Virus record (IMG/VR): IMGVR_UViG_3300043100_000006
Coordinates: 1 to 64,000 of that record
DNA length: 64,000 nucleotides
From: a virus
Direction: 5' to 3' (one strand)
The notes beneath the pieces were generated by a model. That model had not been told where the DNA came from and did no database searches. It saw only the letters and a list, made by a program, of their open reading frames with translations. Position 1 is the first letter of the stretch; every line of letters begins with the position of its first letter. This document shows, piece after piece, positions 2,898-36,772 of this stretch. Both the position numbers and the translations under genes were made by a program.

Positions 2898-3491
2898 ATG
2901 AGCGAAAGGAGTAGCACAGTGGAATTTTTCTCGGGACAGAAACGCAAGCTAACCCTGGTCGATGCCAAGATCAAGCGCAACTCGGAAGATGAGAAGCGTA
3001 TCCGGCTCGACTTTGCCATGCCCCTAACCGGGCAGTCGGAAATCGGAATGCCGCAAGAGATTGGCGCGGCGATGCGGTACGTTGGCGAACTAAAGAACGG
3101 GGCCACGGAATCAAAGATTGAAACACTGCCACTGCCGCAGACGATTCAGTTCTTTGCGACGGACAGTTCGAAGCGGGCGATGTTCGCGGCGATTGCGGCG
3201 GTTGACCTGAAGGATCTGATTGTCACGCGCCCCAAGGTTTCGGAGACCGCGGACACTTCTGCGGTCGAGCTGGCGTTCCATGCCAATTTCCCTTTCGATA
3301 AAAGCATCTGGGATTTTGTGCCAGACTATCACGGCAAAGTCTTCTGGTGCCTGTTCGAGAGAACTCAAATCACGACCGCCGACGTAGTTGCGGAGAAGGC
3401 TGGCGGGGCGGTGCAAAGCGTACTGACCATGCCGGGCGATAAAGGAAAGAAAGGGAAGAGCGGGAAGGATGCGGCTGTGGGCTCGGAGTGA
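2898..3491 (+). CDS. hypothetical protein
   Basis: 197-aa ORF with ATG just after the palindrome. Confidence 0.7.
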   Translation: MSERSSTVEFFSGQKRKLTLVDAKIKRNSEDEKRIRLDFAMPLTGQSEIGMPQEIGAAMRYVGELKNGATESKIETLPLPQTIQFFATDSSKRAMFAAIAAVDLKDLIVTRPKVSETADTSAVELAFHANFPFDKSIWDFVPDYHGKVFWCLFERTQITTADVVAEKAGGAVQSVLTMPGDKGKKGKSGKDAAVGSE

Positions 3492-3682
3492 GCAGCTATC
3501 GCAAGGCCGGCGCTCAGTGGACGGAGGACGGCAAGCAATGGGTGAGCACGCCGCTGAGCATGAATCGGTATTTCGTGGTGTGGTCGCTGAATGACGGAAT
3601 CATTCCGCTCCCAGAAGATAGGCATCCCTCGAAGCCAGTAGCGTCGGATAAGCAAGCTAAGAAGATTGGATAGGAGTTGTAG

Positions 3683-4435
3683 ATGGGCACGACCGGATTA
3701 CCGTGTGTCAAGAACTGTGGATGCTTCACAGATCGCATGGTCGATATCGACGACAGCGGCCAGAAGGCTCCGATATGTATTTGGTGCGAGGATGGCGTGC
3801 CTTGCGAAGCGGCTGCTGAGAGGAACGCGCAGCCGGTGCGAAAGATTCCGCAATCGGTTATGATTCGAGTCAGCAAAGAGGACGCCGGTAAATATCCGCC
3901 ATTGCCGACAGAGAAACCAAAGCGCAAGAAGGCTAAAGTTCTCGAACCGGCGATTGTGGCAGCGGCGCCAGGTATCGCGAAGAAATTACAGGCAACGGTG
4001 CAGGACGCGATTAACGATCTGGAATCCGAGGCAGTGAGGCCGGATGCGGATCAGTGGAAACGAGGGGCGATGACAAAGAACGTTAGCAAAGATACGCTCA
4101 AAGGGTTCATTGACATAGCGGTAGCGCTGACCATGTTTAAGCAGGGTGTAAGCGTTACGAAGATTGCGAAGGAGAAGGGCTTTCCGGTCTGGCGCTTCTA
4201 CCAGTCCGCGGAGTGGGCGAAGGCGAAGGCTACGCTGGGTACACAGAAAGCGGTGCCGCGGAAGGCGACGAAATCGAGGACGGTGGCGCGGTTGCACCGA
4301 GCCGCCACGAACGGGAACGGCATTGCGCCGGTATATCTCAGCGAATCAGCGATGGATAAACTCTGGGAGGATTGTACGATTGAGGACAAGGCGGAGATGA
4401 TCACCGGGTTCATGGCAAAGGTGCATCCGGCATGA
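3683..4435 (+). CDS. hypothetical protein, N-terminal Cys motifs and possible HTH
   Basis: CxxxC/CxxC pairs; ALTMFKQGVSVTKIAKEKG HTH-like segment; AGGAG RBS. Confidence 0.65.
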   Translation: MGTTGLPCVKNCGCFTDRMVDIDDSGQKAPICIWCEDGVPCEAAAERNAQPVRKIPQSVMIRVSKEDAGKYPPLPTEKPKRKKAKVLEPAIVAAAPGIAKKLQATVQDAINDLESEAVRPDADQWKRGAMTKNVSKDTLKGFIDIAVALTMFKQGVSVTKIAKEKGFPVWRFYQSAEWAKAKATLGTQKAVPRKATKSRTVARLHRAATNGNGIAPVYLSESAMDKLWEDCTIEDKAEMITGFMAKVHPA

Positions 4436-4629
4436 GTATGGTCGCAGTTTTTGCTTGCGAGGTCTGCGGCACTGAATCTATACACGGACGATTTAAGGGC
4501 GATGAAATGTATCACGCGGCATTTCAGTGCAAGCGATGCCAAAAGCGAACGGCGCACAAGTTTACGCGGTACTCGTCGGAGGAGTTGGTTCCAGAGGGTG
4601 TACGGAAAAGTTCAGCGAGGCAGAGTTGA
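4432..4629 (+). CDS. small zinc-ribbon protein
   Basis: CEVC and CKRC; ATGA overlap with the upstream gene. Confidence 0.6.
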   Translation: MSMVAVFACEVCGTESIHGRFKGDEMYHAAFQCKRCQKRTAHKFTRYSSEELVPEGVRKSSARQS

Positions 4630-4644
4630 GAAAGGAATGGACCT

Positions 4645-4893
4645 ATGAACGCAGTAACGTTCGACAGCGTTAAGCAGATTATCGTTGAGCAGATCGGCGT
4701 GGACGCCGAAGAGGTCACGCCACAGGCGAACTTCGTCGACGATCTGGGCGCGGATTCCCTGGACACGGTCGAACTGGTTATGGCCTTTGAGGAAGCCTTT
4801 GATCTGGAGATTCCAGACGAAGAAGTAGAGGGGATTCGGACGGTGCAGCAGGCAGTGGACTATCTTGCTGCCAAGAAAATGAAACGGCAATGA
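4645..4893 (+). CDS. acpP: acyl carrier protein
   Basis: [30 protein letters not shown] with the phosphopantetheine Ser intact. Confidence 0.97.
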
Positions 4894-5429
4894 GCGATGG
4901 GTTCGATAGTCGGGTGATGGTAACATTCCACCGCGGAGTTATAGCGTCGATCTTTCGCGAGTGCGACCGATTCGACACGCACGAGACAGGCGGTGCGCTA
5001 ATCGGAACCTATCGCGGAACTCCCAAGTCTGGAATCTCAATCACCGTTAAGGGCGTAATCGGAGCAGGTCCGAACGCATCGCGCACGGCTACCAGCTTCT
5101 TCAAAGACGGCGAATATCAAGAGCGCATCTTTCGAGAGATTGAGCGCAAGCATCCAGAGATCGAGCATTTGGGCAACTGGCACACGCACCACATGAACGG
5201 CTATCCGACACTGAGCGCCGGTGACCGCGCAACATATCACCGCAACGTGAACTCGAACAAGCACAACACGGATTTCTTTTATGCATTCCTGGTCACGGAA
5301 AGCGTCAAGCCTGGGTCGGTAGATCATCACTACCGAGTGAAGCATTTCATCCTCTACCGCGGCGATGAGGGCGAATACGAACTGGCTGCAAGCCAGATGA
5401 CTACGATTGATGAACCGGCGCTGACATGA
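4890..5429 (+). CDS. JAB/MPN+ (Mov34) metallo-isopeptidase
   Basis: ETGGALIG...HLGNWHTHH...PTLSAGD = complete E...HxH...SxxD JAMM motif. Confidence 0.9.
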
Positions 5430-5935
5430 CCGATGAGTTCGACGGACCCGAACCCGAGAAGAAGCGGAAGCACGGCAAGTATCCCTACACGACCAAAAGC
5501 ATGGAATACTTGAGAGGCCTTGGGCGTGTGCCGTGGGTGGTAGAGAGACTCATTCCAACTGGCGGGCCATTCCCGAAAAAGCAGGACCTTTGGAACCTGT
5601 TCGATATCGCGTATGTGGACCCCGCGACGAATCGCGCTGGCTACGTGCAGACTACATCCTACGCGCAGCGAAGTGCGCACAAGAAAAAGATGCTGTCGGG
5701 TGAAGGCGAGACTGGCATCGTGCTACGTACTCTGCTGGCGATGGGGAATGTGGACATTGATCTCTACGGCTGGCGAAAAGACGATCACGATAAGTGGCAG
5801 GTCACTGTGGAGCGCTTGGTGCGAGCGGATGACTTACTCAGTGAGCGCATGGAGTTTGTGCTGGTGGACGCGCCGACATTCAAAGCGGTGCGAGCCCAGG
5901 CGAGGGCGAGAGAAGACGCGGCGGAAGGATTCTGA
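5426..5935 (+). CDS. PD-(D/E)XK-fold nuclease (resolvase-like)
   Basis: VVER...QDLWNLFDIAY...YVQTT pattern of phage restriction-fold nucleases. Confidence 0.6.
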   Translation: MTDEFDGPEPEKKRKHGKYPYTTKSMEYLRGLGRVPWVVERLIPTGGPFPKKQDLWNLFDIAYVDPATNRAGYVQTTSYAQRSAHKKKMLSGEGETGIVLRTLLAMGNVDIDLYGWRKDDHDKWQVTVERLVRADDLLSERMEFVLVDAPTFKAVRAQARAREDAAEGF

Positions 5936-6063
5936 GATTTGTGTTGTGCTCCAGCTCTGTCAGTGATACAACTTTAGGCAATCCGTAAACGGTTGCGAGG
6001 AGTTGGACCCCGAGCGGGCGGCAGTTCATCCCAATGGCTGCCGCCCATCCTGAAAGAAACGCG

Positions 6064-6645
6064 ATGCCGGAAAAGCAGGAAGCGAAATCGAAGCCTCGAA
6101 CGATCCGCACGATAGCCGACCTGAAAGCTACTCCCGACAAAGAGAATCCAAGAGTGCGAACGCCGCGCAACCGGAAAGTAATCGAGCACAGTTTGCGTGC
6201 GCTCGGCGCCGGACGGTCGATTCTAGCGGACGAGAACGGGCAGATCATTGCGGGGAACGGAACGGCAGAAGCAGCAGCGAAGGTAGGCATCACGAAAGTG
6301 CGAGTGGTTCCCACGGACGGGAAAGAGTTGATTGTGGTGCAGCGGTCGAATCTGACGGAGAAACAGAAGAAAGAGATGGCGATCGCAGACAACGCTTCAG
6401 CACTCTACAGCGAGTGGAGTGAAGACATCGAGGCGATGAGCGAAGGCGTTGATCTCGAACCGTACTTCACGGCGGCAGAACTGGATAGGATTGCTGGCAA
6501 AGCTACAGATGACTTTCAAAAGAAAGAGCAAGAACTGGTCGAAGGATTCGCCATCATCATCGAGGGCATCAACGAGGAGCAACAACTGAAATTGCTCGAA
6601 CGCCTAAGCGCGGAGGGACTCTCTTGCCGAGCGTTGACATTCTGA
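6064..6645 (+). CDS. ParB/Srx N-terminal domain protein
   Basis: NPR...IEHSLRALGAGRSILADENGQIIAGNGT...AIADN; alternative start at 6034. Confidence 0.85.
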   Translation: MPEKQEAKSKPRTIRTIADLKATPDKENPRVRTPRNRKVIEHSLRALGAGRSILADENGQIIAGNGTAEAAAKVGITKVRVVPTDGKELIVVQRSNLTEKQKKEMAIADNASALYSEWSEDIEAMSEGVDLEPYFTAAELDRIAGKATDDFQKKEQELVEGFAIIIEGINEEQQLKLLERLSAEGLSCRALTF

Positions 6646-7718
6646 GGAGCGTACCGATTCAGAGGACCGCTCGCGTCATGCAACTCGAGGGAATGTTTGA
6701 TCTTCCCATCGCAAAAGCTTCGGAGCAGAAATGGACAGTGCACCTGAATTTGCCAGAGGAGTGGAGCATCGGGCTTATCGTCGGCCCTTCCGGTTCAGGC
6801 AAGAGCACGATTGCTCGCGAACTGTTTGGGAAGCATTTCGTTAAGGGTTACAAGTGGGCGAAGGACAAAAGCATCATTGACTGTTTCCCGATTTCTGCCG
6901 GAATCAAAGACATTACGGGCTTGCTGTCCTCTGTCGGATTCAGTACGCCGCCATCCTGGCTCCGTCCTTTTCATGTGCTATCGAACGGCGAACAGTTCCG
7001 TGTCACGATAGCGAGAGCACTGGCCGAGCAGAAAGACCTGCTGGTGATCGATGAATTTACCAGCGTCGTTGATCGAACGGTGGCGAAAATCGGCTCTGCG
7101 GCTGTAGCGAAAACCGTTCGGCGTCGCGGACAGAAGATGATTGCCGTGTCATGTCACTATGACATTAAGCAATGGCTCGCTCCTGATTGGGTCTATGAAC
7201 CCGCGACGGATACTCTCAGCGCCGGGAGGTCACTTCGGCGTCCGTCAATCAAACTCTCAATCTTCCGCGTTCATCATAAAGCGTGGGAACTGTTCCGGCA
7301 CCATCACTATCTAGACACGGTCCTGCACAAGTCGGCCGCATGTTTCTTGGCGACATGGAACGAAGTGCCGGTCGCATTTTCTTCTTGGCTCCCACTCTTC
7401 AGTCGCATCCCAGCATATCGCGAACATCGCACAGTGTGTTTGCCGGACTTCCAGGGGGTTGGGATAGGGAATGCCGTCAGCGCCTACTGCGCCTCGATCT
7501 TTGCGGGGATGGGCAAGCGCGTATTCAGTACGACATCTCATCCGTCGATGATCACTGCCAGAGCAAAGAATAAAGCAACGTGGCGACTGTCCAGAGCGCC
7601 GAGTCTGACAGGAAAGGATGGTGGAGGGGGAACGAGTAAGCACGCGACTAGACGATTCACCGCATCATTTGAATATGTCGGGCCGAGCATGGATCGCAGG
7701 GAAGCAGCGCTATTTTAG
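6624..7718 (+). CDS. ABC-type ATPase fused to GNAT acetyltransferase
   Basis: GPSGSGKS, LSNGEQFR, VIDEFTS; C-terminal F..HHYL and VCLPDFQGVGIG acetyl-CoA motif. Confidence 0.9.
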   Translation: MPSVDILRSVPIQRTARVMQLEGMFDLPIAKASEQKWTVHLNLPEEWSIGLIVGPSGSGKSTIARELFGKHFVKGYKWAKDKSIIDCFPISAGIKDITGLLSSVGFSTPPSWLRPFHVLSNGEQFRVTIARALAEQKDLLVIDEFTSVVDRTVAKIGSAAVAKTVRRRGQKMIAVSCHYDIKQWLAPDWVYEPATDTLSAGRSLRRPSIKLSIFRVHHKAWELFRHHHYLDTVLHKSAACFLATWNEVPVAFSSWLPLFSRIPAYREHRTVCLPDFQGVGIGNAVSAYCASIFAGMGKRVFSTTSHPSMITARAKNKATWRLSRAPSLTGKDGGGGTSKHATRRFTASFEYVGPSMDRREAALF

Positions 7719-7783
7719 CTGAAACCCACGTCATGCGCGGCAAGGAAGTGGCTAAACCCTTGATTCGGTGCGCGGTATAAACC

Positions 7784-7812
7784 TTGACAGATTTAAGATT
7801 CACTAGTATTCT
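7784..7812 (+). promoter_or_regulatory. sigma70-like promoter with GATTCACTAGTATTCT box
   Basis: TTGACA-17 bp-TATTCT. Confidence 0.8.
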
Positions 7813-7846
7813 CATCTCAGTCGTAACCAACGACAGGAGACACAAA

Positions 7847-8722
7847 ATGAATCGCAACTTCCGAAGCAACTTCACTTCCAATCAACCCCTGACAATCGAA
7901 CAAATCGCGCAGTACGCGCCATCCGCCCTAGCTGTGGAGCCGCACATCTCGCGCTCCTCACGCTACGCTTACATCCCAACAATTAACATTATCGAGGGGA
8001 TGATCAAGTCTGGATTCCAGCCGTTCAAGGCGACACAGTCAATCTCAAGGATCGATGGCAAGCAGGCGTTTACCAAGCACATGATTCGCTTCCGTCATCA
8101 GGACTCAGGCCAGATTCTTGTTGGCGACTCAGTTCCTGAAGTCGTGCTGATCAACTCTCATGACGGAACAAGCGCTTACAAATTGATTGCTGGCATCTTC
8201 CGTTTTGTCTGCTCAAACGGCATGGTCGTAGCGGAGTCCACTACGGGCAGCGTAACGATCAAGCACCAAGGCAATGTGCTCGACAACGTTATCGAGGGCA
8301 GTTATCGGATTGTGGAAGACTCGAAAAAAGCGCTGGGTGCGATCAATCAGTGGTCGCACTTGCAACTCACATCTGGCGAACAGTCTGCACTTGCGGAAGC
8401 AGCCCACGTCATGCGCTTCGCTGATTCCGAAGGCAAAGTCACCACTCCGATTCTTCCCGCTCAGTTGCTTGCTCCTCGCCGTCATGATGACGCTGGGAAC
8501 GATCTCTGGCGGACGTTTAATCGCATCCAGGAGAACGTGATCAAGGGCGATCTCCACGGGCGCACCCGTTCGAGCTATGACGAGCACGGCCGATTCGTTC
8601 CTAGCCGTCGCGTCTCGACCCGCGAAGTCAAGGGCATCGATCAAGACGTTCGTCTGAATCGCGCACTGTGGACTCTTGCAGAGAAGATGGCTGAACTGCG
8701 TGGCGTCCCCGTCGCTGCCTAA
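7847..8722 (+). CDS. DUF932 family protein
   Basis: H.SRSSRY.YIPT, FTKHMIRFR, NSHDGTSAY..AGIFRFVCSNG, DLWRTFNRIQEN. Confidence 0.9.
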   Translation: MNRNFRSNFTSNQPLTIEQIAQYAPSALAVEPHISRSSRYAYIPTINIIEGMIKSGFQPFKATQSISRIDGKQAFTKHMIRFRHQDSGQILVGDSVPEVVLINSHDGTSAYKLIAGIFRFVCSNGMVVAESTTGSVTIKHQGNVLDNVIEGSYRIVEDSKKALGAINQWSHLQLTSGEQSALAEAAHVMRFADSEGKVTTPILPAQLLAPRRHDDAGNDLWRTFNRIQENVIKGDLHGRTRSSYDEHGRFVPSRRVSTREVKGIDQDVRLNRALWTLAEKMAELRGVPVAA

Positions 8723-8779
8723 TGTTAGTGTCTTGCTACTGCCCACCCGTAAAATAGTGTGGGCAGAGTGGAGGGCACT

Positions 8780-9163
8780 ATGCAACCGTTTAGCAGAGAC
8801 ACGTTGGTCGATCTCGATGGTGTCGCAGTCGTGCGCAGTCCCATGATTTATTCAGACAAGCCGGAGGAGATCGTCAATTACTATCCGACCGGGTTGCGCA
8901 CTCGGGATATGATCGAGAATTATGGCATTCCAGTTCCGGCAGAACTCTCCTATTCGACAATGGGACGATACGCGGTCATGACTGGAAAGCCAATATACGG
9001 GAATGCTCGTATTATTGAACTGCCGGATGGCGGGGCCACGAAGTGCATCAAGCAGGAGATCGTCCCGATTCCATGTCCGAAAGTTCGCAAGGGTATAGCG
9101 ACCCGATGGGCGAACTCGCGCTGGGAAAAATATCTGCAAGCGTTCGGATGGATTGCCGCCTAA
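8780..9163 (+). CDS. hypothetical protein
   Basis: GGAGG RBS, 127 aa. Confidence 0.6.
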   Translation: MQPFSRDTLVDLDGVAVVRSPMIYSDKPEEIVNYYPTGLRTRDMIENYGIPVPAELSYSTMGRYAVMTGKPIYGNARIIELPDGGATKCIKQEIVPIPCPKVRKGIATRWANSRWEKYLQAFGWIAA

Positions 9164-9211
9164 AGGTCTTTCAGAATAAAAAGTCGCTACCAGCGACAGG
9201 AGAATAAAGCA

Positions 9212-34719: not shown

Positions 34720-35262
34720 ATGAGCGGAACGGAGATAACGGCTGGCGCAGCAAGCACCGCGATTAGCAGCGCGAAAAGAAAGAAGGGTGGGCCAGGCAAT
34801 CCTTCGAAGATCATTGCGCATCGGTTCAAGAAGAACGACCCGGAAACGGGCTTTCGGGATGAGCGAATTAATCGCACCGCGCTGCAAATGCAGAAGCGCA
34901 CACTTTTGGATGATATCCAAGATGACCTAGCGGAAATAGTCCTGTGTACGGATGGACTAAAACGAACGAACAGCAGGCGGGTAGCTGAGGCGATTCGCAC
35001 AGCGGCAGTGAGAGGCAAGATGGAAGCAGCTCATATTCTGCTGGATCGCACGCTCGGCAAAGTGCCAGCGGTTGGAACTGGGGGAGGCCCGGAGCGAATT
35101 CCGGGGACGCCTGGGACTGAAGTGAACGTGACAGTGAATGCCCAAGCAATTGCGAACGCGCAAGTTGAAAGCAGAAACACCAAAGATCCATCAGAACTTG
35201 TCCGACTCCTCGACGAGTACTATGGACTCGCCCGCAGGGACGATGTCAGGCTCAGCGGTTGA
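34720..35262 (+). CDS. terminase small subunit (putative)
   Basis: Overlaps terL; GNPS...RFKK...D.RINR; A.RG.MEAA..LLDRTLGK. Confidence 0.7.
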   Translation: MSGTEITAGAASTAISSAKRKKGGPGNPSKIIAHRFKKNDPETGFRDERINRTALQMQKRTLLDDIQDDLAEIVLCTDGLKRTNSRRVAEAIRTAAVRGKMEAAHILLDRTLGKVPAVGTGGGPERIPGTPGTEVNVTVNAQAIANAQVESRNTKDPSELVRLLDEYYGLARRDDVRLSG

Positions 35263-36772
35263 GGTACTGCCGCCAGAAGTTCCCAAGAATCCGTTGCGGC
35301 TGTATAAGTATCAAGCGGACTGGATTAACGATGAGTCGCAGTTAACGATCGCCACAAAGGCTCGGCGGATCGGCTTCTCGTTTGCGGCTGGGTTTAAGGG
35401 TATACGTAAATGCCTACTGAAGAAGCAAGACTTCATTGTTCTCAGCGCTGGCGAGCGGCAATCAATTGAATTTATCGGTAAGTGCGTCGCCCCACATTTG
35501 CGAGCGATCGGGGCGATTGCGGAATATCATGACGCATTCTTTCCGGGCTCCTCGATTTTAGAGAAGCGCGTCATTCTTGGAAACGGTTCCCGCGTTATAG
35601 CACTGCCGGCGAATCCTGAGACAGCGCGAAGTTACGGCGGGGATGTTCTGCTCGACGAGTTCGCGTTCCATCTTGACGCGCGTAAAATCTACGAAGCTAT
35701 CGCGCCATCAATAACCCTTGGCTACGAGTTGGCGATTATCTCGACGCCAAATGGTCAACAGGGGCCGTATTACGAGTTAGCCAAAGAAGCTGGATTGACG
35801 GGAGAGGAACCCAAGAGCAAGCGATTCTCCCCGCACAGTTGCAACATCTTCCAGGCGATTGAACAAGGATTTTCGGATCGCTTCGGTAGGCCATTGGTCG
35901 CAGAAGAAGTTCGGCAGACATGTCTTGACGAGGAGATGTGGCTCCAGGAATTTTGTTGCCAGTTCCTTTCGATTCTTTCGCAGTGGATACCATACGAACT
36001 ATACAAGGCGAATGAATCGAGTTCGGCATCAAGCGGGGAGCCAGACCCGGAATACTCAAACATGTACGCGGGTTGGGACATCGCCCGTAACAAGGATCTG
36101 TCTGTTGTCTGGTTCATGAACCAGGTAGGGGATGTGAGCGTAACCCGCGGACTCTGGGAGATGAGGAACATCCCAACGCCGGAGCAGGTACGGCGCATCT
36201 GTGCGATCATGCCGCGGATTCGGCGGCTCTGTATCGACAAGTCGGGCATGGGCCTTCCTATCTTCGAGCAATTGGAAGAGAAGTTTGGTGCGAGCCGGGT
36301 AGAGGGAGTGCAGTTCACGCTTCCTGCAAAAGAGGCGCTAGCAACGCATGGCAAGCGCCGGATGGAAGAAGCGAAAGTCCGTATTCCAGAAGGGCAAGAC
36401 ACGATCCGGTATTCCTTCGCTTCGATTAAGAAGACTACGACAGCGACAGGCCAAGCGCGCTTCGATGCCGAGCATGACGAGAAGTACGGACACGGCGATC
36501 ACTTTTGGAGTTTCTGTCTTGCGGAATCAGCGGGACATAATCCAGGTGATGGGTTCATGCGCTGGTTGCAAATCAAGTCAGACGAGAAGAAGCAAAATGC
36601 TCCGGTGCCAGGCCCGCAGGATATTGGCGGAGGGCTGGTGTTGGGCGCGGCTCCAGTTGCTGGCACGGTAACAGTGAACGCGCCAGAGACGGCGGGACCG
36701 GAGAAACCTAGAGAGCAAGTGAAACCATTCACCGATCCGTACGGATTGCTGCAAAGAGCAGCGAGGAAATAA
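35243..36772 (+). CDS. terL: terminase large subunit (Mu gp28-like)
   Basis: KARRIGFS Walker A, LLDEFAF Walker B, ISTPNG, GWDIAR..D nuclease motif, HGD. Confidence 0.95.
   Translation: MSGSAVEVLPPEVPKNPLRLYKYQADWINDESQLTIATKARRIGFSFAAGFKGIRKCLLKKQDFIVLSAGERQSIEFIGKCVAPHLRAIGAIAEYHDAFFPGSSILEKRVILGNGSRVIALPANPETARSYGGDVLLDEFAFHLDARKIYEAIAPSITLGYELAIISTPNGQQGPYYELAKEAGLTGEEPKSKRFSPHSCNIFQAIEQGFSDRFGRPLVAEEVRQTCLDEEMWLQEFCCQFLSILSQWIPYELYKANESSSASSGEPDPEYSNMYAGWDIARNKDLSVVWFMNQVGDVSVTRGLWEMRNIPTPEQVRRICAIMPRIRRLCIDKSGMGLPIFEQLEEKFGASRVEGVQFTLPAKEALATHGKRRMEEAKVRIPEGQDTIRYSFASIKKTTTATGQARFDAEHDEKYGHGDHFWSFCLAESAGHNPGDGFMRWLQIKSDEKKQNAPVPGPQDIGGGLVLGAAPVAGTVTVNAPETAGPEKPREQVKPFTDPYGLLQRAARK

Follow-up and report, generated by a model that had tools for sequence, protein, structure and literature searches.

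The DNA considered here is a window of 64,000 nucleotides (bases 1-64000 of the 102,179-bp IMG/VR virus record IMGVR_UViG_3300043100_000006, an uncultured soil phage), and the genes under study are two adjacent ones, coding for an acyl carrier protein (ACP) and for a metallopeptidase of the JAB/JAMM type. The analysis revealed that the JAB protein belongs to the family of the peptidase subunit of a bacterial cassette for ubiquitin-like conjugation (E 5e-86 to the hidden Markov model, HMM, of the cassette JAB) and that its clade is confined, among the informative contigs of a small sample, to phages with an AcpP-like gene. The interest of the two genes lies in a phage protein that is a candidate eraser of a ubiquitin-like tag of bacteria, and in its apparent dependence on the carriage of ACP. 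The features of the pair (lengths in amino acids, aa) are the following:

4645..4893, + strand: AcpP-type acyl carrier protein, 82 aa (PF00550 and NCBIfam AcpP equivalogs; DSL serine intact)
4890..5429, + strand: stand-alone JAB/JAMM (MPN+) metallopeptidase, 179 aa (motif, fold model, and clade)
4890..4893, + strand: ATGA overlap between the stop of ACP and the start of JAB (read from the sequence)

Motif, Fold, and Family of the JAB Protein

A preliminary description of this DNA, made without database searches, had assigned a full catalytic motif to the JAB protein, and this was confirmed: E32, H98-x-H100, S109, and D112 are all present and invariant across 12 and 16 homologs (alignments A1, A2, and A4), the spacer from H to S being of eight residues, where seven is canonical. 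The AlphaFold model (predicted local distance difference test, pLDDT, 89) retrieved CSN5, Rpn11, an archaeal Rpn11 homolog, and Cap3 with Foldseek at a probability of 1.00 and a TM of 0.6-0.7. According to these data, the protein has both the motif and the predicted MPN fold of a JAB/JAMM (MPN+) enzyme. Its score against Pfam Prok-JAB is 24.5 bits (cut-off 25), and many of its homologs carry precomputed PF14464 matches. RadC is absent among its Pfam matches at E<=0.01; the RadC structure 2qlc matches the model of a long homolog at Z 6.8, vs. 14-17 for Rpn11 and Cap3. The search with tblastn did not retrieve any match from the GenBank phages, and no PHROG family was found for JAB.

Three known JAB families were considered and discarded. 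The best NCBIfam match is cap2_3 of the 6A-MBL system, over the JAB part only (3e-13; 49.1 bits vs. a cut-off of 320), and neither E1 nor E2 nor the metallo-beta-lactamase (MBL) of that system is encoded in the genome. The scores for CBASS Cap3 are far below the cut-offs (NF050170, 29.8 vs. 200 bits; TIGR02256, 40.5 vs. 127.6), and in place of an operon with CD-NTase, Cap2, and effector, the neighbors of JAB are ACP and an Hjc-like gene. Among the PDB sequences, the JAB profile matches Cap3 (9ild) alone (E 0.0016); the PADLOC CBASS JAB models match JAB at 1e-13 to 1e-14, and the long-homolog model matches Cap3 at Z 15.7 and BilC at Z 13.7. The phage protein resembles Cap3 as a small stand-alone JAB of similar fold, and as an isopeptidase it would likewise reverse a conjugate made by E1 and E2; it differs from Cap3 in being phage-encoded and placed outside any defence operon. 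Lastly, it is not of the type of lambda gpK, since it is a single-domain protein in an early operon, with no NlpC/P60 domain, no gpI neighbor similar to ubiquitin-like proteins (Ubls), and no PHROG match.

The Bacterial Cassette of the Long JAB Forms

The protein search retrieved 622 JAB homologs, a few of which are 170-180 aa long and many about 300 aa. The library-wide profile search gave 91 clusters at E<=1e-30, and most among those listed are again of about 300 aa. The long form was found in 80 loci (one of them archaeal) from more than 10 phyla, with 43-58% identity to the phage JAB (45-58% in all but two loci). The genes for the long forms are always embedded in the same one-strand cassette, both in these 80 genome loci and in 12 metagenome loci, and in the metagenome loci the short forms are never part of it. 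The cassette comprises:

Tag: open reading frame (ORF) of 57-65 aa, consensus ...EILPNGE(I/V)R...KPLTMREDLGGEY with 0-10 additional residues after it, encoded at 66-68 of 79 loci; the tag ends with LGGEY
E2: about 125 aa
Phd-E2-like (E2'): about 176 aa, an E2/RWD-like protein with a Phd-like N-terminus
E1: about 290 aa, ThiF-type
JAB-UEV: about 300 aa, JAB followed by a 125-aa C-terminal domain
MBL: about 278 aa, ComEC-type metallo-beta-lactamase

The C-terminal domain of the long JAB is folded as a helix, four strands, and two helices, and its structural matches (Z 7-8) are UEV, RWD, and the E2 domain of Cap2. The phage JAB ends exactly at the domain boundary and lacks this domain. Over the whole JAB domain it is alike to the cassette form and shares with it the invariant residues E, HxH, S, and D and the ECD motif; it differs in the missing UEV/RWD domain, in the missing cassette neighbors, and in A36, K72, and S122, where the cassette forms have invariant R, Q, and H.

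The 6A-MBL models are among the top NCBIfam matches of the JAB, E1, and MBL of the cassette. The operon type 6a was described by Iyer et al. in 2006 (PMC1779556); it is now called 6A-MBL and is an anti-phage system, reported in Pseudomonas aeruginosa (10.1101/2025.09.30.679545; PMC13276650). The domain set (E2, E1, JAB, and MBL; NF058523 cap2_3 and NF058524 MBL) is the same as in the cassette, the difference being that the E2, E1, and JAB of 6A-MBL form one 665-aa protein; the phage has only the JAB. By homology, the cassette is a split relative of 6A-MBL. Furthermore, in a metagenome-assembled genome (MAG) from Terriglobia (L010:9767-14355), the cassette is directly followed by a canonical 6A-MBL pair (MBL, 283 vs. 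220 bits; cap2_3, 349 vs. 320 bits, within a 1138-aa protein), so that two related conjugation systems stand side by side.

Some further features of the cassette were observed. At one metagenome locus (L090:2486-4321), JAB-UEV and MBL form a single 611-aa ORF, representing either a fusion or a read-through. The MBL gene comes just after JAB, and many MBL proteins (L016, L007, and about 65 other loci) end with ...TRRVA or ...TRVR, others having 8-12 more residues; these ends recall the C-termini that are processed or activated in the CD-NTases of CBASS. The archaeal locus, on a contig of a Methanosarcinales MAG (L066), harbors the full cassette including the tag, with a JAB identity of about 49%.

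The Short-Form Clade and Its Phage Contexts

In the tree of 102 JAB domains, the window JAB falls in a clade of 18 rows made up of short forms only (SH-aLRT 100); with midpoint rooting, all cassette forms fall on the opposite side of the tree. At three positions the short and the cassette forms each have a fixed residue of their own (A36/R, K72/Q, and S122/H). Across 16 short forms, whose identity is 56-84%, about 60 columns are invariant, all the catalytic residues being among them. The closest relatives, P0002 and P0003, share 83-84% of their residues with the window JAB; their contigs, together with those of P0006 and P0043, lay outside the neighborhood survey and were not among the results of the metagenome scan.

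Among 2.9 million viral contigs of IMG/VR, the short JAB occurs in only five, at the following places:

Window phage: between ACP and the Hjc-like gene
L002: after an SbcCD-like nuclease
L003: between TerL and portal
L118: just before TerL
L119: before a portal-MuF fusion

The comparison of the whole contigs revealed that the JAB phages have almost nothing else in common with the window phage, and the short JAB is the best-conserved or the only common gene among four otherwise unrelated phage contigs. No E1, E2, tag, or MBL was found in the other JAB phage contigs. Because it is always alone and is 52-66% identical between phages that are otherwise unrelated, the short JAB shows, as far as sequences tell, the behavior of a mobile accessory gene whose function is self-contained. 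In L002, a long imperfect repeat of the hexanucleotide type (L002:5738-5992) lies directly upstream of the JAB ORF and is fused in frame with it; its three frames give (KV)n, (RS)n, and (LT)n.

Co-Occurrence of JAB and ACP in Phage Genomes

Three of the four other JAB phage contigs carry a carrier-protein gene, that is, all three informative ones, the fourth contig being a fragment of 6.7 kb:

G308: AcpP-like, 89 aa, 10.5 kb from JAB, on the other strand
G309: AcpP-like, 92 aa, 39 kb from JAB
G307: AcpP-like, C-terminal half only, cut by the contig end, 6.5 kb upstream of JAB (read directly)

The best NCBIfam matches of the G308 and G309 proteins are AcpP models, below the cut-off, and the assignment of the G307 fragment comes from direct reading. 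JAB and ACP are the only families common to G000, G308, and G309. As regards lineage-matched controls for the other JAB phages, the TerL of L003 found only itself and that of L118 one 10-kb contig; thus, TerL or portal relatives of the window phage were used instead. None of these 50 control viral records (1.39 Mb, about 17.6 genome equivalents, mostly fragments) carries a carrier protein. Fisher's exact test gave p = 1.6e-4 for three of four vs. 0 of 50, and p = 4.2e-3 if two of four are counted; the Poisson estimate is 1e-4 at 1% ACP per genome. Conversely, JAB was found in none of 15 other ACP-bearing viral records and in no GenBank phage record.

The preliminary description had named a lack of conservation of the pair among the outcomes that would refute its reading. 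The two genes are not conserved as neighbors, since ACP-JAB adjacency was found in no other JAB phage contig; they are conserved at the genome level, in three of three informative contigs vs. 0 of 50 controls. A real link between ACP and JAB in the genome therefore survives. Because the JAB clade occurs only in ACP-bearing phages, the need for JAB would be tied somehow to the carriage of ACP. Candidate reasons are an interference of holo-ACP with the E1/E2 thioesters or a shared phage host range; as a speculation, the carrier protein might be what the cassette tags or senses.

The Acyl Carrier Protein

The carrier protein of the window scores 61.7 bits against PF00550 (cut-off 20.8) and exceeds the cut-offs of four curated NCBIfam AcpP models, i.e., NF002148 (117.7 vs. 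71), NF002149 (114.7 vs. 106), NF002151 (112.1 vs. 92), and TIGR00517 (106.1 vs. 70.45); it also matches the PHROG family phrog_5934, "acyl carrier protein" (2e-22). The DSL serine for the 4'-phosphopantetheine arm and the acidic helix II are kept, in agreement with the canonical AcpP that had been proposed for this gene. No ACP synthase gene is present in the phage, and the phosphopantetheinylation of its ACP would therefore need a host enzyme.

The identity to bacterial AcpP proteins is 74-83%, the named matches being from Terriglobales, and that to the ACP of the related phage G304 (L101) is 78%. The preliminary description had reckoned with a protein nearly identical to a host copy, which does not apply at an identity of at most 83%; on the basis of this value, and of the retention in the relative at 78%, the idea of a recent passive capture from the host was rejected. 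Because of its 74-83% identity to bacterial AcpP, the phage ACP is taken as host-derived, and not as a fresh copy.

Of 50,697 GenBank phage records, 93 (0.18%) match the window ACP. The phage ACPs of phrog_5934, annotated in phages of Vibrio, Xanthomonas, Prochlorococcus, Yersinia, and others, are likewise encoded by a single AcpP-like gene without fatty-acid synthesis partners. Compared with them, the window ACP is unusually host-like, with its identity to Terriglobales AcpP and its scores above the equivalog cut-offs. None of the 93 matching records has this JAB, to which no GenBank phage record gives a match. No PADLOC match was found for ACP.

The ATGA Overlap and a Related Phage without JAB

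The overlap of the ACP stop with the JAB start does exist, at 4890-4893, and it had been taken as a translational coupling of the two genes. Such overlaps are a local rule: the genes between 2883 and 5935 meet at five junctions, four of which overlap by 4 bp, with further ATGA overlaps at 3488-3491, 4432-4435, and 5426-5429, and in the whole genome about 12 were counted in about 103 same-strand junctions, on a crude gene call.

The related phage G304 is complete (102,896 bp) and has 69 of about 144 ORFs in common with the window phage, with a median identity of 58%. Its ACP gene is followed by an unrelated 81-aa ORF and then by a homolog of the 169-aa gene that lies downstream of JAB in the window (58% identical, about 270 bp past ACP); no JAB is present anywhere in this complete genome. 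Because G304 has ACP and the downstream gene but no JAB, ACP is the resident of this lineage and JAB the insert. The idea of a specific coupling is accordingly not maintained: the overlap was rejected as the mark of a functional couple, being incidental to the tight packing of the genes.

In G304, a gene for Mom-like DNA modification of the GNAT type (phrog_1384, 2e-22) and an IS1595/ISXO2-like transposase ORF precede ACP (L101:2194-3945); neither has a counterpart in the window phage.

Genome, Gene Neighborhood, and Host

The phage genome has direct terminal repeats and is 100% complete according to CheckV, and nearly all of its genes lie on the + strand. The other features considered are:

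4432..4629, + strand: zinc-ribbon protein, 65 aa, upstream of ACP, with weak zinc-ribbon Pfam matches only; ATGA overlap with the 3683-4435 gene
5426..5935, + strand: 169-aa phage-only protein, probably a PD-(D/E)xK Hjc-like nuclease (nearest named Atlas clusters Hjc/Mrr_cat, 0.88-0.89, a lead only)
6034-7718: ParB-like protein (phrog_620) and overlapping ABC-ATPase gene
6624-7718: 364-aa ABC-ATPase with an acetyltransferase-like C-terminus (phrog_11143, 2e-104; PADLOC mad3/mad8-like)
35138-36772: TerL (Terminase_6), named relatives of 47-48% identity in Terriglobia and Acidobacteria MAGs

The tightly packed unit with ACP and JAB, to which the zinc-ribbon gene also belongs, runs on into the genes for the ParB-like protein, the ABC-ATPase with acetyltransferase-like part (phrog_11143), a DUF932 protein, and a clamp-loader-like ATPase. 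No promoter-like or terminator-like site was found on the + strand between 3300 and 7780. ACP and JAB are two intact accessory genes in an early, replication-type operon. The 169-aa protein belongs to no Pfam, PHROG, NCBIfam, or PADLOC family; with it as query the viral scan gave no match, the relative having come only through the ACP scan. In its putative active site, VQTT takes the place of the expected E-x-K. The search of the DNA from 3600 to 9200 against phages gave nothing useful.

JAB is an orphan in this complete genome. In the whole 102 kb, no ThiF (PF00899), ACPS (PF01648), ketosynthase (PF00109), or AMP-binding domain (PF00501) was found at E<=1; the HMMs of the cassette E2, E2-like protein, E1, and MBL retrieved nothing at E<=10, and the best match of the tag HMM has an E of only 1.8. 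The absence of conjugation and fatty-acid synthesis genes previously reported for the window thus extends to the whole genome for E1, E2, tag, ACP synthase, ketosynthase, and AMP-ligase; no individual searches were made for the remaining Fab genes or for generic beta-grasp Ubls.

Since the named best matches of ACP and TerL are from Terriglobales/Terriglobia, the host is probably a Terriglobia-type acidobacterium. Terriglobales MAGs are also among the carriers of the cassette.

Possible Roles of the Phage JAB

Because JAB is intact and orphan, and because its closest relatives are the peptidases of an E1/E2 cassette related to an anti-phage system, a role in stripping conjugates is the best supported. 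The preliminary description had put forward this kind of role with CBASS or Bil conjugates as the target. The kind of role is retained here, and the target is not, given the low Cap3 score and the 45-58% identity to the cassette JAB: the likely target would be the tag-E2-E2'-E1-JAB/UEV-MBL cassette, not CBASS or Bil. The reading that we favor, albeit tentatively, is that the phage JAB cleaves or deconjugates the tag of the cassette as a counter-defence. The known JABs of such systems, BilC and Cap3, mature the C-terminus of the modifier and remove the modifier from its targets (PMC10557695, PMC13276650). The phage enzyme is a stand-alone, horizontally mobile version of the peptidase subunit of the cassette; expressed early, it would recognize the C-terminal LGG of the host tag and cut the isopeptide bonds between tag and target, or else mis-process the tag precursor. 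This, in turn, would reverse the conjugation that the cassette relies on and leave the cassette disarmed. The predicted complex of the phage JAB with the tag was classed as "weak support", with a score of 0.37 (runs 0.82, 0.37, and 0.23), the best of three controls scoring 0.00; the runs agree in at least 69% of the contacts, with a partner pLDDT of at least 48. In a set of 80 solved complexes, 58 attained the mark used in these predictions, as did two of 110 mismatched pairs; at <=0.60, only seven of the 80 and both mismatches did so.

An extension of this reading, which we consider unlikely, is that ACP and the orphan JAB of the phage act together, as the two halves of a single counter-defence directed at a bacterial system of ubiquitin-like tagging. 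Either the carrier protein (the phage one or the host AcpP) would be tagged or sensed by the cassette or, alternatively, the thiol of holo-ACP would drain the E1/E2 thioesters, and JAB would erase the tags that still form.

Several points weigh against a tag eraser directed at the cassette. The defence role of the cassette itself comes from homology and from one neighbor in a defence island, and the cassette is rare, being present in two of the 301 genomes that were sampled from the order to which a Terriglobales carrier belongs; furthermore, the assignment of the phage host is indirect. The score of the JAB-tag complex is weak and varies between runs. The phage JAB lacks the UEV/RWD domain and departs from the cassette forms at three positions that are invariant in them, so that it may see another substrate; the tree is unrooted, and it leaves undecided whether JAB was captured from the cassette or the reverse. 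In three of the five phage loci JAB adjoins TerL or portal genes, which could point to head assembly. As for ACP, the co-occurrence comes from just three independent contigs, with controls that are mostly fragments, and the Poisson p is only 0.026 if the base rate is set generously, at 0.17 per genome.

Four other explanations can be depicted. ACP and JAB might act in one phage pathway outside defence, i.e., a carrier-protein-dependent biosynthesis or modification with JAB as amidohydrolase (cf. Mec+/CysO and QbsD/QbsE). This would agree with the finding, at the genome level, of the short JAB alongside AcpP-like genes across phages that are unrelated, with the JAB peptidases of metabolic sulfur-carrier operons (Iyer 2006, PMC1779556), and with the GNAT-type enzymes near the ACPs (the 6624-7718 protein, and the Mom-like one directly upstream of ACP in L101). 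We nevertheless regard it as rather improbable: a sulfur carrier, Ubl, E1, ACP synthase, ligase, and ketosynthase are all missing from the phage, as is a counterpart of the Mom-like gene, ACP and JAB are 6-40 kb apart in the other JAB phages (on opposite strands in G308), no third gene is common to these phages, and the nearest JAB homologs are all in conjugation cassettes, not in metabolic operons. The position of JAB beside packaging genes in L003, L118, and L119 might instead indicate a role in morphogenesis, such as the processing of a head or packaging protein, akin in spirit to the lambda tail-tip protein K. In the window phage, however, JAB belongs to the early replication-type operon, with TerL and portal 30 kb away, and in L002 it comes after the SbcCD-like nuclease; moreover, the close relative G304 assembles its virions without JAB, and the protein has no PHROG match, no NlpC/P60 domain, and no Ubl-like partner, all of which makes such a role decidedly improbable.

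The proposal that JAB mimics Cap3 or BilC, stripping the primed CD-NTase of type II CBASS or Bil Ubl conjugates, with the coupled ACP as a decoy, draws on the JAB fold common to both, on Cap3 9ild as the sole PDB sequence match, and on the structural and PADLOC CBASS matches reported above. We give it very little credit, since NF050170 and TIGR02256 are missed by a wide distance, JAB is far closer to the cassette JAB, which acts on another tag that is not a CD-NTase, and the coupling to ACP is not conserved. Equally little speaks for JAB as functionless passive cargo, or as the last remnant of a phage-borne cassette, with a co-occurrence of ACP that merely reflects a shared host range. The rarity of the short JAB (five of 2.9 million viral contigs) would fit such a scenario, whereas the conservation of about 60 invariant columns, catalytic residues included, across 16 short forms, the precise packing of the gene without flanking remnants, its standing as the most conserved common gene of unrelated phages, and the absence of ACP from all 50 controls (TerL/portal relatives) do not.

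Significance

Viral deubiquitinases and deISGylases of eukaryotic viruses are virus-borne erasers of a host immune protein tag, and most of them are proteases of the papain-like or OTU kind rather than JAB enzymes. The logic proposed here for the phage JAB would be parallel to theirs. In the literature searched, whose coverage is incomplete, we found neither a phage-encoded eraser of bacterial ubiquitin-like tags nor a phage JAB acting in counter-defence.

The bacterial ubiquitin-like conjugation systems (type II CBASS, Bil, 6A-MBL, and relatives) represent a young field, in which the phage JAB is a ready-made probe that could show that the cassette is a defence system and identify its targets. 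If JAB erases the cassette tag, it would provide a bacterial parallel to the viral deubiquitinases. If, in addition, ACP and JAB are the two halves of one counter-defence, they would form the first phage immune evasion module of a "deubiquitinase type", and the finding of JAB only in ACP-bearing phages would be explained. This restriction of JAB to ACP-carrying phages may also help to explain why a single acyl carrier protein, on its own, is kept by some phages.

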